Source of the DNA: a phage
Strand: one strand, 5' to 3'
DNA length: 64,000 nucleotides
Sequence record: PZ386972.1
A program made the translations under genes and the position numbers. This document shows, piece by piece, positions 3,231 to 23,713 of this stretch (the stretch's first letter is position 1; each line of letters opens with the position of its first letter). Under the pieces are notes generated by a model, which worked only from the letters and a program-made list of their open reading frames with translations, was not told where the DNA came from and did not search any database.

Positions 3231-3259
3231 ATTATATCAAAATATTGGGATAATAGCAA
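3231..3259 (-). promoter_or_regulatory. early promoter (-35 TTGCTA, 17-bp spacer, -10 TATAAT) reading into DNA polymerase
   Basis: Plus strand shows ATTATA at 3231-3236 and TAGCAA at 3254-3259, the reverse complement of the conserved plus-strand promoter. Confidence 0.6.
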
Positions 3260-3618: not shown

Positions 3619-4509
3619 TTATACCAAATCTTTAAGCGATTCAGCAACTAAAATTTCAATACGTTTTGCTAACATATCAATTTCTTCTTTACTTAAGTCA
3701 CCTGGGTCTTTACCTTCAGGCAGAAGAAAGTTAGCAACTACAGGTGTTAAACGCGTTTTTGTACGAATTAACTTAGCCAGTGCTTGTGCAGCTTTATTAC
3801 CAGAAGCATCATTATCTAGTAAGATAACAACAACTTTAACACCAGCAATAATATACGGACTGAACTTATCTGCAATGTTGTCTGAAGTAAACTGATGTGT
3901 ACCAAAGCAACAAGAAGCATAGTCTATACCATTATCCTCTAGATTCAGCATATCAAAGATACCTTCAACTAGAATAAGAACTGGAGTATTATATCGTACA
4001 GGAAAAATTGGCGGTGAAACTTGTTTTGGTTTTACTAGGTATTTAGGAGGGGCAGAACTGTTTATAGAACGACCCAAAAATAGGATATTGCGTCCAACAG
4101 CATCTGTGATTGGGAATACAATTCTGCCTTCCCAGTCTGCTTGGTGTTGGAAAGCAAAATATTTCTTCAAGGTCTTAGAACTTATACCTCGGAAATCACC
4201 TTCGAAAAGGTAAGCAGATTCAGGAATTGCAAGATTCGTAGATCCATTCCTAATCTCTGAAATCTTTTTACGTACCTGTGATAGTCTTGGGGACTGTCGG
4301 TACTGAGTCTCATTAAAATAATGGTAAATGCTCGGTATACCTTTACCGAAGCCACAACTCAAGCAGTGCATAATACCTGTTTCAGGATCAATACGCAAAC
4401 TTGGGTGTTTATCGTCATGATCTGGATTGAGACAACAGATGAGGATGTCCCCACCTGTGTCTTTATATTCAATGCCTTTCAGATCAAGTAGTTCTGTTAT
4501 TCTACTCAT
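3619..4509 (-). CDS. DNA primase (DnaG-like zinc finger plus TOPRIM)
   Basis: 296-aa ORF; zinc-binding CLNPDHDDKHPSLRID...CLSCGFGKG; TOPRIM-like LVEGIFDMLNL and VILLDNDASGNKAA; start overlaps helicase stop. Confidence 0.75.
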   Translation of the reverse strand: MSRITELLDLKGIEYKDTGGDILICCLNPDHDDKHPSLRIDPETGIMHCLSCGFGKGIPSIYHYFNETQYRQSPRLSQVRKKISEIRNGSTNLAIPESAYLFEGDFRGISSKTLKKYFAFQHQADWEGRIVFPITDAVGRNILFLGRSINSSAPPKYLVKPKQVSPPIFPVRYNTPVLILVEGIFDMLNLEDNGIDYASCCFGTHQFTSDNIADKFSPYIIAGVKVVVILLDNDASGNKAAQALAKLIRTKTRLTPVVANFLLPEGKDPGDLSKEEIDMLAKRIEILVAESLKDLV

Positions 4510-5978
4510 ATATCGCTGGCCTGTTCACCTGTTGAATTTTCAGCTTTGTCTTTCTTAGCACGTTTAGGTTGAGCCGGCTTATCCTTCTCAATAGGGATAA
4601 CGAACTCAGCTTCCATTTGAGATATATCTTCCATTGCTAGGTTGGTAGTGTTATCCATCCGCAGGGTTTCCCAGTTCATTTTAGGCATAAACTTCACGCT
4701 ATCAGAAGAACGAGTCTTAACGAAGTCAAACATAATAGCACCTTGACCATTATCAGCTTTTGCAGCATTAAGATTAGCAGCCATGTCTGCAGAATCAAGA
4801 ATCCCCTTTGACATACGTGTTCTACCATCTTGATCGATCTGGTAAGGAGCTACGCCAGCCACGTTATGTTTCTGGCAGATAGATTTGAAAGACGAGCTAA
4901 CAACCATCTGTTCTTTCCAGTCATACATATCAATGGTTTTAGAGTCTGGAAGTCGGGTTTGGTTAATATAGTCCAGTAAAGCTACTGTAACTTTATCTCC
5001 GTATCTAGCAACTAATTTATTTAATTCTACGTCAACTGTTGTAATGGACAGTTCAGGATCATAAACAATAATCATGGGAGTATGTAGTTCATATCCCTCT
5101 ATTAGCTTACTCTCCATATCGTAGAAATCACTCATCTTAGCCATTGTGTACTGTTTAACGAAGTTATCAAAAAGCTCTTCACCTCCATTAAACATTCTAG
5201 CTCTAGTTCTGGCCAATCTCAACAGAGCTGCACCTTCTAGAGTATTATTACGCATTGCTAGTGCTGATACACCAGCTAACATGGCTAGATTACGTCTAAA
5301 TACTTCATGTTCTTTCATCTCAATTGAGAAGTATGGAGCAATATCCCCATTCAAATATTGCTGAACCTGTATGTTTGAACAGATAATGGATTTACCAGTA
5401 CCACGCCAACCACCAAGCAGTAACGTTTCTGTGCGAGCTAAACCAATTTGAGCGTCGAACTCATTACAAATACCAAGAGCGATTAAGTTCAGTTTGGTAT
5501 CTTCTTCTCTCTGGAAAATACGCATGTTATCTGCGTTGAATACTTTTCCAGTATTCGTTACTTTCTCTTCTAATTTTAAGTGAAGGGAGGCAACTCGGTT
5601 GAGAATTTCTCCCTGATCCAGCATTGTTAAATCTTGAAGCACGTCTGTTTCTAGAAGCTTCAGGAATAAATCCTGTGTATATTCGGCCTCTAGGACTTCA
5701 AGTGCCTGTTCCATGCTCACTTCTGGAATTTGAGTGTTAGCTAAGACGACTAGAGCTTGAGAAAGGCGGGCGTTCCTATTAGCCTCAAGCATCAGTGCAT
5801 CAATGGACGGCATTGTGTTATATTTTTTATAATAATTCTGGACGGCTTGGTAAATTGAGGAGAAAGCGTCATTAAAATGATCTTTATGCAGTTTTGAGAA
5901 TGTTTCCAATGCTATTTGCTTCTGTTCAGAAGCTAGAAGCATCTTCAACACTACAGCTTGCACGTTAAACAAGGTCAT
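4506..5978 (-). CDS. DnaB-like replicative helicase
   Basis: ORF track 4506..6029; start moved to internal ATG at 5978 preceded by AAGGAGA RBS; Walker A-like GGWRGTGKS. Confidence 0.65.
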   Translation of the reverse strand: MTLFNVQAVVLKMLLASEQKQIALETFSKLHKDHFNDAFSSIYQAVQNYYKKYNTMPSIDALMLEANRNARLSQALVVLANTQIPEVSMEQALEVLEAEYTQDLFLKLLETDVLQDLTMLDQGEILNRVASLHLKLEEKVTNTGKVFNADNMRIFQREEDTKLNLIALGICNEFDAQIGLARTETLLLGGWRGTGKSIICSNIQVQQYLNGDIAPYFSIEMKEHEVFRRNLAMLAGVSALAMRNNTLEGAALLRLARTRARMFNGGEELFDNFVKQYTMAKMSDFYDMESKLIEGYELHTPMIIVYDPELSITTVDVELNKLVARYGDKVTVALLDYINQTRLPDSKTIDMYDWKEQMVVSSSFKSICQKHNVAGVAPYQIDQDGRTRMSKGILDSADMAANLNAAKADNGQGAIMFDFVKTRSSDSVKFMPKMNWETLRMDNTTNLAMEDISQMEAEFVIPIEKDKPAQPKRAKKDKAENSTGEQASDI

Positions 5979-6022
5979 TCTCCTTTGCACGCTTTCGTGC
6001 CTTCTAAATGCAAAAAGGGGAA

Positions 6023-6055
6023 GGAGCATAGCCCCCTCCCCTTAGGTTTAATTTA
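6023..6055 (-). terminator. rho-independent terminator (minus strand)
   Basis: GC-rich hairpin AGGGGAGGGGGCTATGCTCCTTCCCCT followed by a T-run when read on the minus strand. Confidence 0.5.
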
Positions 6056-6060
6056 CCAGA

Positions 6061-6828
6061 TTATTCAGCAGCCGCAGCTTTTGCATCCAGTTTAGCACGC
6101 TTAGCGGCACCATCATAGTCCTTAGCAACCAGACCACGACGAGACAGCATAGATTTAACACCGCGCTCAGATTTACCAGTTTTCTCAGCGATCTCAGCAA
6201 CAGTCATGTTAGCCAGATCCAGACCTTCTAACAGATCTTCACGAGTTTTAGCACTTGAGGTTTCCTGTACCGGCATAGCAGCGATACGACCTTCACGAAG
6301 CAGGCTCAGAGCTTTACCACGGATCTGCTTGATATTACGACCGAAGTGAGCAGCGATAGCTTCAATAGTAGCACCAGCAACAACCTGATTAACAAAATCA
6401 GTTTCTTCATCCGGAGTAAAGGAACGAACAGCAGCAGCTTTTTCAGTTGGTTTAACAGAAGCAGTCATTTCCAGACTCAGGATCTTACCCTGTACCTGTT
6501 TAGCACCGAACTGACCACCAGCTACAGCAGCAGCGATTTCAGCATAGGTATACTGACCAGCATGAGCGTTCAGGAAATCAACCAGTTCAGCTTCCTGCTC
6601 AGGAGTCCACGGGGATTTCTGTACTTCGTTAGCTTTCTGTACTTCAAAACCTTCTTTACGCAGTTTAGAGCCAACAGAGCGAGCAGTAACATCTTTGCCA
6701 GTTTCAGCAGCCAGTTCAGTAGCGATAGCAGCTACTTGTTCTTGAGAGATTACAGAAACACCCAGAGCAGTGGCTTTTGCTTTCAGAGACTCGGTTACAC
6801 CTTCTACGTTCCAGTTCAGTTTAGACAT
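6061..6828 (-). CDS. hypothetical Ala/Lys-rich protein with internal repeats (255 aa)
   Basis: ORF track; repeated GK(A/I)LSL segments; sits between ligase and helicase. Confidence 0.5.
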   Translation of the reverse strand: MSKLNWNVEGVTESLKAKATALGVSVISQEQVAAIATELAAETGKDVTARSVGSKLRKEGFEVQKANEVQKSPWTPEQEAELVDFLNAHAGQYTYAEIAAAVAGGQFGAKQVQGKILSLEMTASVKPTEKAAAVRSFTPDEETDFVNQVVAGATIEAIAAHFGRNIKQIRGKALSLLREGRIAAMPVQETSSAKTREDLLEGLDLANMTVAEIAEKTGKSERGVKSMLSRRGLVAKDYDGAAKRAKLDAKAAAAE

Positions 6829-7603
6829 TATTATTTTTCTCCAATAGTTCTTTAATCGACAGGATTTCTATCCCATTCGTTTCGGCTTTCTTATAAGATG
6901 AGGAAGAACGCTTCGATTCATCCTCACAGATTAGGTATTTGACGTCTTTGGTAACGGATTTCTTAACCGTATACCCTAGACTTTCTAAATAGTTTGTTGC
7001 ATCCGTTCGATTTGCAAAATCTTGCAAAGATCCGGTAATACATACCGCGATTCCATTTGGCTGGGCAACTAATTCATCTGTAATGATGACGTCAGCTTTA
7101 GTGCCCTTAATACCAGTTGAAAATTTCCACGGTAATTCGATAACATCCTTGCCTTGTGGGGAATTTAGCCAGGCTTTATAATTTTCTCCAGCCTTGCCGT
7201 CAGCCTTCACATCATGGAAGCTAGTGCAATTTTGGGATAATTTCTTTGCTGCAACCTCTCCAATTAGAGGGATTCCTAAAGAACCGAGAACTGAACCAAA
7301 GTCAATGTCTCCGCGAACTTTAGTATTTAATTCGCTAATTAACTTAGCGGCAACCTTGCTACCCACGGCTCTAACCAAATCTTCTTCGGTTAGGTAAAAT
7401 AGTTCTGAGATCTTCGTCAGCTCCAGCTTCTCAATAGTTTTTGGACCAAAGCCCTTTAACTTCATTTTTGTACAGAAGTTCTCAATTAACTTACTTGATT
7501 GCGCTGGACAGTTGGACTTATTCCGACAAAATAATTGTCCGTTGACAAGATCTAGCTTAGAACCACAAGAGGGACATTGTGTTGGAATTTCGATTTTCAT
7601 CAA
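6821..7603 (-). CDS. ligB: NAD-dependent DNA ligase, C-terminal subunit (Zn finger, HhH, BRCT)
   Basis: 260 aa; Cys4 zinc finger CPSCGSKLDLVNGQLFCRNKSNCPAQ; HhH GFGPKTIEKL; BRCT-like C-terminus; own promoter at 7631-7659. Confidence 0.8.
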   Translation of the reverse strand: MMKIEIPTQCPSCGSKLDLVNGQLFCRNKSNCPAQSSKLIENFCTKMKLKGFGPKTIEKLELTKISELFYLTEEDLVRAVGSKVAAKLISELNTKVRGDIDFGSVLGSLGIPLIGEVAAKKLSQNCTSFHDVKADGKAGENYKAWLNSPQGKDVIELPWKFSTGIKGTKADVIITDELVAQPNGIAVCITGSLQDFANRTDATNYLESLGYTVKKSVTKDVKYLICEDESKRSSSSYKKAETNGIEILSIKELLEKNNNV

Positions 7604-7630
7604 ATTTCTTCCTTATCAATTTATATAAAT

Positions 7631-7659
7631 ATTATAGCAAGTATTTAAGCATTTAGCAA
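7631..7659 (-). promoter_or_regulatory. early promoter inside the gap between the two ligase ORFs
   Basis: Plus strand ATTATA 7631-7636 and TAGCAA 7654-7659 (minus-strand TTGCTA, 17 bp, TATAAT). Confidence 0.6.
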
Positions 7660-7802
7660 CTACAATTTTAACTAACTTTGCTTACCCTCGCCATAACTTT
7701 CTATCCCTCAACTGAATGATAATAGTATATACCTAAGCGGCGAAAATGTCAATAACCACTTTATAATTCCGATATGGTAGATGGGTAGCAAAGGGTTATG
7801 TA

Positions 7803-8774
7803 TTAATCGTATACTCGTTCTACTATGCACGGGATTACACCACCAGCACGAATCACTCGAATCTGGCAACCGATCTCTAGATCGAGAGAGTTAATATAAT
7901 CAACGTTATTAAGAGTCGCTTTAACAATTGTAGCATCATCAATAATTACCGGTTCGAAATAACCAACTGGAGTTACTTTACCAGAAGCCCCTACCTGCCA
8001 TTCAACTTTAGTAAGAGTTGTAACCTCGCCTTCTTCATCCTCTTTAATAGCGAATGCTCCACGAGGGAATTTATTAGTCCAGCCTTCACGGAAGAATTTG
8101 TTGTTGTCATTAATACGAACAACTTTACCATCCGTCGGAATCCATTTAAAGAAGGAACGCACATTAACAACTGTTAAGAAGTTCTCATTCTCCAGCCAAA
8201 GCATATCTTTTAAATATGCTTCTGTAATACCTACAGATTCAGCAGAACACTGGATACCATATGCAACGAAGATTAAACCACCTTCTCCGATACGTTGTAC
8301 AAAATCATCACTATCTTTGAGGTTAATAGCACCAGAGGCAAAGTTACGTTTATTTTCTACTTCTTTTGTAATTAGAACTTCACCAGTGATTTGAGTAGGT
8401 ATTTTTTGGGAAATCTTTTTAGGGATATTCAGCAATCTTACGTTGCTTGTGACATCATTTCCCAGAATACCATTGCCACGAGTTAGTGCTTGAACAAATT
8501 CTCCATTAATATATAACAGAGAAATCGCACAACCATCTAACTTATCAGTTTCTACCTGACCTAATGGGTTGAATGGGGGTTTATCTCCACGATTATAATA
8601 AACTTTCTGTAAAGAATACATACGATATAGATGTGGAATATCACCCTTAGGTCCGATCTCTTCTTCTAACGGGAAGCGTTTTACCAGGCAATCATACTCC
8701 TCATCTGAGATTAAAGACATACCTTGATAATATGCTTCTTGGCAACGTTTAATAAAGTCTTTTACATTGGTCAT
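7803..8774 (-). CDS. ligA: NAD-dependent DNA ligase, N-terminal adenylation subunit
   Basis: 323 aa; adenylation KxDG motif (ETDKLDGCAI); OB-fold region; separated from the C-terminal ORF by 199 bp. Confidence 0.8.
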   Translation of the reverse strand: MTNVKDFIKRCQEAYYQGMSLISDEEYDCLVKRFPLEEEIGPKGDIPHLYRMYSLQKVYYNRGDKPPFNPLGQVETDKLDGCAISLLYINGEFVQALTRGNGILGNDVTSNVRLLNIPKKISQKIPTQITGEVLITKEVENKRNFASGAINLKDSDDFVQRIGEGGLIFVAYGIQCSAESVGITEAYLKDMLWLENENFLTVVNVRSFFKWIPTDGKVVRINDNNKFFREGWTNKFPRGAFAIKEDEEGEVTTLTKVEWQVGASGKVTPVGYFEPVIIDDATIVKATLNNVDYINSLDLEIGCQIRVIRAGGVIPCIVERVYD

Positions 8775-9047
8775 TTATTCTGCCTCATAGTATGTGGGTT
8801 GTCTAGTGGATCCGTGCCATGTATAATTTTTGCAAAGATGCAAATATGTAGTTTTTACTAGCCTATCTGACAACGGAGAGTATATTTCAGCTACTAATAC
8901 TTCTTTTTCGTAATGAAGTGAAATCAGCTTATACCCACTTCTAGTTTTAGTATACTTTTCTCCATTAATCTTCTCCTCCCACATAAGTATAAGAGGCTGT
9001 CCGATGTACGGGAAAGGTTTAAGTGTACTTATACTTATCTTTTTCAC
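8775..9047 (-). CDS. hypothetical protein (90 aa)
   Basis: ORF track; directly abuts ligA start. Confidence 0.45.
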   Translation of the reverse strand: MKKISISTLKPFPYIGQPLILMWEEKINGEKYTKTRSGYKLISLHYEKEVLVAEIYSPLSDRLVKTTYLHLCKNYTWHGSTRQPTYYEAE

Positions 9048-9077
9048 TTTGCAACCCTCTCATTAATTTATATAAAT

Positions 9078-9106
9078 ATTATATAACAAAACTGAGTTGA
9101 AAGCAA
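9078..9106 (-). promoter_or_regulatory. early promoter (minus strand)
   Basis: Plus strand ATTATA 9078-9083 and AAGCAA 9101-9106; 17-bp spacer. Confidence 0.55.
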
Positions 9107-9133
9107 GTACATTTATAAAGAAAAAGCCAAGAA

Positions 9134-9442
9134 CTAGGCATTCTTGGCTTTGAGTTCTTCAGCTCGTTTCTGTACTTCATGTAAAACCTCAGATTCGCTA
9201 AGAATCTGTGTAAACGCATAGAAAAGCTGTGATGTTGTTTCTAGGGTGTAAGGAAAAGAGAAGCCAGATTTCGTTGGAAACCATTCATCATTAATATCAA
9301 GAAGCCAGTAACGAATACCCATGTATAGATTCCCACGAAATTCAGATACTGTTAATCTTACTTGTTCCCCCTCCTTCTCCCAAAGTATGATGGACTGGTC
9401 ATCAACGTGTCCTTCATAGTTTTGATTTACCTGTTCGCTCAT
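9134..9442 (-). CDS. hypothetical protein (102 aa)
   Basis: ORF track. Confidence 0.5.
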   Translation of the reverse strand: MSEQVNQNYEGHVDDQSIILWEKEGEQVRLTVSEFRGNLYMGIRYWLLDINDEWFPTKSGFSFPYTLETTSQLFYAFTQILSESEVLHEVQKRAEELKAKNA

Positions 9443-9454
9443 TTACATATCCCA

Positions 9455-9482
9455 AATACACAAAAAGCCCCATATAGGGGCT
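9455..9482 (-). terminator. rho-independent terminator (minus strand)
   Basis: Hairpin GCCCCTATATGGGGC followed by TTTTTG on the minus strand. Confidence 0.5.
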
Positions 9483-9492
9483 AATTGGTTTC

Positions 9493-9789
9493 TTATCGGC
9501 CTACTGGAGAAGCACGATCTAACTCTGATTGGAGGCTAGTCACACGACGGACTTTCTCGACAGGAATAAAACGGAAGCTATCATTAGTACGAGAGAAGAC
9601 AAGGATTTCATCATCTTTCGCTTTACGAATACGTTCACGTTTAATACGCTCAGCCAGATATTTATCTTGGGCTGGATCAAATTCCATCGTACCCTGAAGG
9701 TACGTGGTTCCTTTCTGACGAAGTTTCTCGTAATGAAGATAAAACTCACCAAATTTTTCACATTGTGCGATAATTTCAGCTTTGGTCAT
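9493..9789 (-). CDS. hypothetical protein (98 aa)
   Basis: ORF track. Confidence 0.5.
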   Translation of the reverse strand: MTKAEIIAQCEKFGEFYLHYEKLRQKGTTYLQGTMEFDPAQDKYLAERIKRERIRKAKDDEILVFSRTNDSFRFIPVEKVRRVTSLQSELDRASPVGR

Positions 9790-23684: not shown

Positions 23685-23713
23685 TTGCTAATCGCTACCA
23701 GATTTGCTATAAT
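23685..23713 (+). promoter_or_regulatory. early promoter (TTGCTA, 17 bp, TATAAT)
   Basis: -35 at 23685-23690, -10 at 23708-23713. Confidence 0.55.

Follow-up and report, generated by a model that had tools for sequence, protein, structure and literature searches.

Does a phage DNA ligase that is encoded by two separate open reading frames (ORFs) represent a genuine two-subunit enzyme, or a single gene broken by a frameshift or an intron? We addressed this question in a stretch of 64,000 nucleotides (nt) of phage DNA (sequence record PZ386972.1), which we call the window and whose positions are used throughout. An original prediction, made from the letters of the window, had described a ligase dependent on nicotinamide adenine dinucleotide (NAD+) in two ORFs with a promoter in the gap. 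Our analysis indicates that the product of the locus is very probably a heterodimeric DNA ligase that uses NAD+, namely the ligA/ligB pair known from phage T5. It is the already-described pair of the Demerecviridae with its named promoters P-K28b and P-K28a, and it is not new. The features of the pair are given below (aa, amino acids).

7803..8774, minus strand: ligA, ORF of 323 aa with a putative Ia domain and the adenylation and OB domains
7601..7802, minus strand: non-coding ligA–ligB gap, 202 nt, 100% identical to phage T5
7608..7614, minus strand: ribosome-binding site AAGGAAG, read from the sequence, 7 nt upstream of the ligB ATG
6821..7600, minus strand: ligB, 259 aa from the ATG at 7600, with Cys4 zinc (Zn) finger, HhH, and BRCT domains

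Identity of the Locus

The window comes from a T5-like phage (Tequintavirus). Several Escherichia phages match the 2.6-kb region at about 98% identity; identity of at least 99% was found in just one record for this region, compared with 206 phage records for the gap alone. The T5 RefSeq record (NC_005859.1) annotates ligA as T5.116 and ligB as T5.117, with D5 directly downstream of ligB. The window shares with T5 the genes, their order, the break point, the start codons, the ligB–D5 overlap, and the downstream helicase. It differs from T5 in its coding DNA (95.7–96.8% identical) and in an extra 90-aa ORF that separates ligA from the regulator gene upstream. The split ligase of T5 was already reported in the genome paper of 2005, the RefSeq annotation names both promoters, and the subunits are listed in two further papers (PMC3632103, PMC4319617). 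The original prediction was made unaware of the published T5 pair, and the promoter it described is one of the two named T5 promoters.

The predicted pair of minus-strand ORFs (7803..8774 and 6821..7603) was borne out, with a correction at the start of ligB. The TTG at 7603 lies one codon upstream of the ATG at 7600 in the ligB frame and would give 260 aa. The ATG is most likely the true start, because the T5 RefSeq ligB is 780 nt long and subunit B of the Providencia phage PR1 ligase begins MKIQIPT at the equivalent methionine. The gap is therefore 202 nt instead of 199 nt. The ribosome-binding site predicted for the downstream half is present at the position listed above.

Domain Composition of the Two Subunits

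LigA matched the Pfam families PF01653 DNA_ligase_aden (E-value 2.7e-23) and PF03120 DNA_ligase_OB (E-value 3.5e-22, above the cut-off), as well as phrog_3359 (E-value 1e-175) and the PDB chain 9hu3_A, ‘DNA ligase (NAD(+))’ (E-value 2e-103). The nucleotidyltransferase motif I (KxDG) and motifs IV and V are present, with K78-L-D-G opposite K115-L-D-G of E. coli LigA. In the HMMER alignment, D215/G216 and K244 lie opposite E. coli D285/G286 and K314, respectively. The OB region aligns with E. coli LigA 317–390, and R309 lies opposite R379. Residues K78, D80, G81, D215, G216, K244, and R309 were invariant in 27 homologues. In the putative Ia domain, the motif AYY...SDEEYD (Y15, Y16, D24, Y27, D28) lies opposite YYV...SDAEYD of T. 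filiformis, a stretch that scored −2.9 bits in HMMER; Y15 and Y27 were invariant and D28 was conserved in at least 90% of the same homologues. The putative Ia domain is short, approximately 45 aa compared with approximately 70 aa in E. coli. The AlphaFold2 model of LigA (predicted local distance difference test score 87.8) has two N-terminal helices, and its best PDB fold matches were 9i5i_A and 9hu3_A.

LigB matched phrog_3498 (E-value 2e-137), the PDB chain 9hu3_B, ‘DNA ligase subunit B’ (E-value 5e-81), and the BRCT family PF00533 (E-value 5.8e-8; 33.3 bits, cut-off 21.3). The four cysteines of its zinc finger (C9, C12, C25, and C31) lie opposite E. coli C408, C411, C426, and C432, respectively, and its HhH region is colinear with 2owo 433–586.

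The comparison with bacterial LigA agreed with the proposal that the halves together make one ligase. When LigA and LigB were concatenated and compared with E. coli LigA, a single HMMER domain ran across the junction (query 214–576 to LigA 284–666), so that the concatenate was colinear through the junction and no domain was missing. The break falls in the linker between the OB domain and the Zn finger, where about six linker residues are absent. LigA ends with ...VIPCIVERVYD and LigB starts with MKIEIPTQCPSCGS, and the PR1 subunits break at equivalent positions. The two halves also cover consecutive parts of the fused phage-ligase profile phrog_3869 (9–381 and 388–654 of 656). With bacterial LigA (E. 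coli, PDB 2owo and 5tt5) the phage enzyme shares the order nucleotidyltransferase–OB–Zn–HhH–BRCT behind a putative Ia domain, the KxDG motif, motifs IV, V, and VI, the Cys4 finger, and the BRCT domain, at about 26% identity in the fold alignment. It differs in its shorter Ia domain and linkers and in its division into 323 and 259 aa, compared with a single chain of 671 aa. Two ORFs in place of the canonical single-polypeptide LigA are the defining feature of the T5-type variant.

A direct structural counterpart is the Providencia phage PR1 ligase, which has two subunits, a matching domain split, and approximately 52–55% identity to each half; in its LigB the stretch from HhH to BRCT is about 11 residues shorter. 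PDB entry 9hu3 (released 2026-01-14) is titled ‘PR1 phage heterodimeric DNA ligase in complex with 21-mer nicked DNA containing phage nick sequence’, and 9i5i (released 2026-02-18) has the same wording but ‘with random sequence’. The chains of both entries are 100% identical to ligA and ligB of Providencia phage vB_PreS_PR1 (Priunavirus, Demerecviridae). Proteus phage Stubb was considered as the source of 9hu3 and rejected, as it is just 58% identical. Our literature search found no paper for 9hu3 or 9i5i.

From these comparisons, LigA would perform the chemistry, with a short Ia domain for recognition of NAD+ and nicotinamide mononucleotide, a nucleotidyltransferase domain in which K78 would be adenylated, and the OB fold. 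The modules that clamp the DNA (Zn finger, HhH, and BRCT) would come from LigB. The two subunits would assemble around the nick and seal it, as in the PR1 complex.

The Intergenic Gap and Its Promoters

The original prediction placed one early promoter in the gap, at 7631–7659. This site was confirmed, but the gap does not hold a single promoter, and a second, better match was found upstream of it.

7724..7752, minus strand: promoter P-K28b, TTGACA-17-TATACT, 11/12 consensus positions; the T5 feature maps to 7698..7772
7631..7659, minus strand: promoter P-K28a, TTGCTA-17-TG-TATAAT then ATTTATATAAATTGATAAGG, 10/12 consensus positions with an extended −10; the T5 feature maps to 7605..7679

The P-K28 promoters were reportedly isolated by function in the Bujard laboratory in the 1980s; our literature search found no publication describing them. 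On the identical gap sequence, NC_005859.1 carries the features ‘promoter P-K 28b’ and ‘promoter P-K 28a’. The two sites are the best minus-strand promoter matches in the 3.6-kb region. Consensus matching alone is weak evidence, because promoter-like sites at 9/12 were no commoner across this region than expected by shuffling (9 observed, 8.8 expected). Of 5000 gap shuffles, however, only 0.4% contained two coding-strand sites of at least 10/12. The gap is also more conserved than the flanking genes, with 100% compared with 95.7–96.8% identity to T5 and 97.5% compared with 88.9% identity to EPS7. In every T5 and Epseptimavirus-type locus, P-K28a precedes the ligB ATG by 59 nt.

A tandem promoter pair was found directly upstream of ligB in EPS7 and in phages of Klebsiella (Sugarlandvirus), Proteus (Novosibvirus), Providencia (Priunavirus), and three Vibrio lineages. 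The pair consists of TTGAC(A/G)-17-TATA(C/A)T followed by a TTGC(T/C)N-17-TATAAT-type site. In PR1 it lies in a ligA–ligB gap of 192 nt; PR1 differs from the window in having a terminator annotated directly after ligA. Distant metagenomic lineages with gaps of 78–81 nt showed a single perfect TTGACA-17-TATAAT at −57 or −58, and lineages with gaps of 51–52 nt showed no promoter at the threshold used. The promoter or promoters thus travel with ligB across the family.

P-K28a belongs to a stereotyped class, AAAAATTCAT-TTGCTA-17-TATAAT-AT..ATAAATTGAT, with about 12 copies in the window. Sites of this class have an A-rich upstream stretch (AAAAATTCAT) and then ATAT..ATAAATTGAT/GAGG in the initial transcribed region. 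They were located at 23685, 28395, 31593, 33106, 35581, 36792, 40423, 45856, and 55497 on the plus strand and at 3259, 7659, and 9106 on the minus strand. Judged by its sequence, the class probably marks T5 early transcription units across the window.

Two smaller elements near P-K28b were inspected. The motif TTGAGGGA(A/T)AG (7700..7712, minus strand) lies within about 25 nt after the P-K28b −10 and has been conserved in phages as far apart as T5 and those of Klebsiella and Vibrio (loci L002, L004, and L006). It could be a promoter-downstream element or a Shine–Dalgarno (SD)-like standby site; no conserved ORF follows it, and the 8-codon ORF of the window is not kept in relatives. This mini-ORF (MARVSKVS, approximately 7694..7668), which follows an SD-like GAGGGA downstream of P-K28b, was rejected as a candidate gene, since its peptide is not conserved in the Klebsiella or Vibrio relatives.

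Conservation of the Split

All 120 best LigA homologues were of split size (310–337 aa, adenylation and OB domains only), down to 46% identity. The split was then followed in 80 IMG/VR loci spanning 43–99% identity. None of these was fused, and ligB was found downstream on the same strand in 74 of the 80, with gaps of 51–1374 nt. The numbers of GenBank phage records with ligA and ligB were 438 and 436 at an identity of at least 80%, and 88 and 84 at 60–80%, respectively. The ratio of non-synonymous to synonymous substitution rates (dN/dS), compared with T5 and T5_ev212, was approximately 0.03 for ligA and 0.13–0.28 for ligB. Both halves are under purifying selection.

Transcription Units and Neighboring Genes

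The genes and signals around the pair are as follows.

9123..9151, minus strand: terminator-like hairpin from the terminator scan, preceding the promoter at 9078..9106
9078..9106, minus strand: early-class promoter TTGCTT-17-TATAAT-ATTTATATAAATTAATGAGAGGG, read from the sequence, at the head of the putative unit of the 90-aa ORF and ligA
8775..9047, minus strand: 90-aa ORF, phrog_35018, no Pfam match; its stop abuts the ligA start (TAAATG)
6061..6828, minus strand: D5, DNA-binding protein/transcription regulator, ORF assigned by phrog_323 ‘D5-like’ (E-value 3e-71) and the T5 annotation
6015..6043, minus strand: intrinsic-terminator-like hairpin with a 13-bp stem, 8 GC pairs, and a T run, at the putative end of the ligB–D5 unit

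The terminator scan found no terminator-like site after ligA in the window. Together with the overlap of ligB and D5 and the hairpin after D5, this leads us to infer a ligB–D5 unit with possible read-through from ligA. The ATG of D5 overlaps the ligB stop by 8 nt (ATGTCTAA), which argues for co-transcription of D5 with ligB, and the two genes are probably translationally coupled. The gap promoters probably serve the whole ligB–D5 unit rather than ligB alone, as far as the arrangement of signals can tell. The break in the ligase would thus coincide with a transcription-unit boundary: ligA would be the last gene of an early unit (promoter 9106..9078, 90-aa ORF, ligA), and ligB the first gene of a unit driven by the tandem P-K28b and P-K28a and ending at the 6043..6015 hairpin. 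Since no terminator-like site follows ligA, polymerases from the ligA unit probably read through and contribute to the transcription of ligB. The PR1 record annotates a terminator at the corresponding position behind its D5 homologue.

The strong hairpin at 6015..6043 extends over the first start codon listed for the DnaB-like helicase ORF (4506..6029), at 6029. Translation of the helicase may therefore begin further downstream, or it may also be regulated by the hairpin. D5 itself gave several weak helix-turn-helix matches, the best to sigma-70 region 4 (PF08281, E-value 6.9e-7, residues 204–230) and further ones near residues 71–100 and 144–188, which suggests a protein built of repeated helix-turn-helix units.

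On the other side of the pair, the T5 record has a promoter annotated just upstream of ligA. The 90-aa ORF is also present in T5_ev212 and has no annotation in the T5 RefSeq, where 87 nt separate T5.115 from ligA. Variation thus extends to the 5′ flank of ligA, as T5 RefSeq has just these 87 nt where the window holds the ORF. This flank carries an HNH endonuclease gene in Klebsiella phage FZ41 and a DprA-like gene in Proteus phage Stubb.

Accessory Genes between the Halves

Extra genes that separate the halves lie downstream of the ligA stop and upstream of the promoter or promoters. The region behind ligA is an accessory-gene hotspot, with GIY-YIG endonuclease, NADAR, and DprA-like genes among its occupants. 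Proteus phage Stubb carries a NADAR-domain gene there (E-value 1.6e-31; L003 3492..4109), placed between the two parts of an enzyme that itself consumes NAD+. In a related Proteus phage (L045 4992..5159), a 338-nt gap holds just a 55-aa ORF, possibly a remnant. Vibrio phages carry DprA-like (phrog_768) and unknown genes between the halves, and one metagenomic contig carries a dioxygenase-like gene.

In Salmonella phage SP3 (MG387042.1 64022..64660; L033 4965..5606), a 213-aa GIY-YIG protein begins at the ligA stop with an ATGA overlap. The last 30 nt or so of ligA are recoded, and the right boundary of the insertion lies about 18 nt before the −35 hexamer of P-K28b. This sequence arrangement resembles that of a free-standing homing endonuclease gene whose flanks were co-converted. 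A GIY-YIG gene at the split site was found in just three records from two phages (Salmonella SP3 and R2). The hypothesis that the split site is universally occupied or created by a homing endonuclease was rejected, since the gap genes of the Proteus and Vibrio phages are NADAR, DprA-like, or unknown.

One uncultivated lineage (L085 4933..7380; L066, L067, L071, L072, and L074) has at least four genes after ligA, including radical SAM/SPASM and QueC-like proteins, possibly a DNA- or nucleotide-modification module. In the Vibrio phage phi 3 lineage (L047 4953..5174), a 73-aa ORF directly after ligA matches phrog_13916, which is labelled ‘DNA ligase’. With a profile of 67 positions, this label is probably a guilt-by-association annotation.

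Other two-gene phage enzymes are known, namely T4 topoisomerase gp39/gp60 and NrdA of Aeromonas phage Aeh1, the latter split by the homing endonuclease mobE. Both are essential enzymes of DNA metabolism that are divided at a domain boundary into two co-functioning polypeptides, and mobile or accessory genes can occupy the split site. The gap of the window differs from them in that it has no endonuclease gene and holds conserved promoters.

Alternative Explanations

The arrangement could also mean that the halves act independently, LigA as a sufficient minimal ligase or adenylyltransferase and LigB as a separate nick- or DNA-binding protein or, through its BRCT domain, a recruitment protein. 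LigB would then be co-expressed with D5 for another purpose, for example in connection with the site-specific nicks of T5-type genomes. LigN-deltaC, which consists of the Ia, adenylation, and OB domains and is equivalent to LigA, still forms the enzyme-adenylate (PMC1684257). The placement of the halves in different transcription units, the translational coupling of ligB to D5 and not to ligA, and the up to 1.4 kb of unrelated genes that can separate them also fit independence. However, ligA and ligB co-occur with their order kept in all informative loci and with matching record counts, the PDB lists the PR1 orthologs as a heterodimer with nicked DNA, and neither terminus has gained a new domain. 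The Zn–HhH module is moreover required for nick sealing in full-length LigA, which counts against independent action, and we regard this explanation as quite improbable. Rejoining of the halves through a group I or II intron, an intein, trans-splicing, ribosomal bypassing, or programmed frameshifting would have precedents, as T-even and T5-like phages carry introns and homing endonucleases and T4 gene 60 is read by translational bypass. The GIY-YIG gene at this junction in SP3 also points in that direction. The Rfam scan of 6000..9500 at E-values up to 1 found no intron or other RNA family, just a weak unrelated small-RNA match at 9462..9493, and the gap RNA folded no better than its shuffles (z-score −1.0). 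An intron or structured RNA in the gap was rejected on these two results. The stretch spanning the gap has seven stop codons in each frame, the ligA and ligB frames differ, and ligB has its own ribosome-binding site and ATG. Across loci the gap varies from 51 to 1374 nt and can hold whole genes; in the window it contains no coding-strand ORF of 40 aa or more. There are no intein-sized extra residues at either terminus compared with fused relatives, and the PDB entry lists the subunits as two distinct chains. Rejoining is thus extremely improbable.

The idea of an error in sequencing or assembly, or of a once-fused ligase gene that is decaying into a pseudogene, has one public record in its favor, that of phage EPS7, which has a frameshift inside ligB. 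Against this stand the identical split in several hundred independently sequenced genomes, the low dN/dS of both halves, the intact catalytic and Zn-binding residues, and a gap that is more conserved than the coding DNA, so error or decay is effectively refuted. With the stops in every frame, the lack of an Rfam intron, the conserved split, and the PR1 heterodimer entries, the claim of a genuine two-subunit ligase with no frameshift or intron is supported.

Several points nevertheless weigh against the heterodimeric ligase. The evidence for a heterodimer consists of PDB titles and chain names of an ortholog with approximately 52–55% identity. For this phage, the sequence data show the gene structure, domain content, conservation, purifying selection, and identity to the T5 promoters; from orthology we infer ligase activity, use of NAD+ as the cofactor, association of the two subunits, and in vivo promoter activity, and the extent of the transcription units is likewise a deduction. 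The Ia domain was assigned by its conserved motif, which gave no significant profile match, and the HhH match of ligB in Pfam (HHH_2, 24.5 bits) is below the curated cut-off of 27. In EPS7 (NC_010583.1), ligB is frameshifted near codon 95 and reads as ORFs of 108 and 129 aa (L011 2872..3653). This is either a sequencing error in the 2008 record or a real pseudogene and a sign that ligB can be lost. The EPS7 record annotates just the C-terminal 129 aa, as ‘NAD-dependent DNA ligase’. Finally, ligB was not found before the contig end in six of the 80 IMG/VR loci, which are on short metagenomic contigs. Loss of ligB was considered for these six and rejected: they form one lineage with at least four cargo genes after ligA, their contigs end too soon, and they are uninformative.

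Origin of the Split

The two-subunit ligase has fused relatives at two distances. Phage ligases at approximately 30% identity are fused and 645–655 aa long. A full HMMER scan of 1.8 billion representatives yielded compact fused relatives of 541–586 aa with 35–47% identity. Such compact single-chain phage or metagenomic NAD+ ligases (for example P0152, P0158, P0173, and P0179) resemble LigA plus LigB in size and align with them end to end, with 34–44% identity in the N-terminal part and 21–37% in the C-terminal part. They differ in being fused, with an OB/Zn linker of about 5 to 25 residues at the T5-type cut site. This linker shows no sequence conservation, and its variable, unconserved nature marks a permissive fission site. 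The ancestral single chain would have been cut in the flexible linker between the OB domain and the Zn finger.

In a neighbor-joining tree of 110 N-terminal halves, the T5-type sequences formed a pure split clade of 22 tips, and deeper in the tree split and compact fused forms interleaved. The tree is star-like and unresolved and has no bootstrap. The interleaving hints at repeated fission or re-fusion. A single origin of the split was also considered; with a star-like, unbootstrapped tree it allowed no firm conclusion. Five compact fused sequences (P0152, P0158, P0173, P0179, and P0190; 555–576 aa) nest among split-size sequences at 40–47% identity.

A broader proposal is that the cut is an ancient, selectively maintained transcription-unit boundary and cargo-integration hotspot and not a neutral accident. 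We offer it as a speculation that is more likely wrong than right by a wide measure. According to this proposal, a mobile element with a promoter would have inserted into the OB/Zn linker of a compact fused ligase and so made the fission. The promoter or promoters would stay with ligB–D5, and accessory or mobile genes, including the radical-SAM/QueC-like ones, would come and go after the ligA stop. The split would persist as separate expression of LigB, together with the abundant DNA-binding protein D5, tunes ligase activity. If this were true, site-specific nicks of T5-type genomes could survive into packaged DNA, and the interleaved split and compact fused forms in the tree would represent repeated fission or re-fusion.

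Significance

As a discovery, the locus carries little weight: the split T5 ligase was already published and annotated, and the PR1 heterodimer structure was released in 2026. It is a useful check on annotation pipelines, where ligB is often labelled ‘hypothetical protein’ and the pair is called ‘DNA ligase (x2)’. For the biology of the family it adds a modest evolutionary footnote, that an essential multidomain enzyme was cut at a flexible linker and kept so. The footnote is based on the family-wide link between promoter and ligB, a gap more conserved than the genes, the accumulation of cargo genes behind ligA, and the position of the cut as marked by compact fused relatives.

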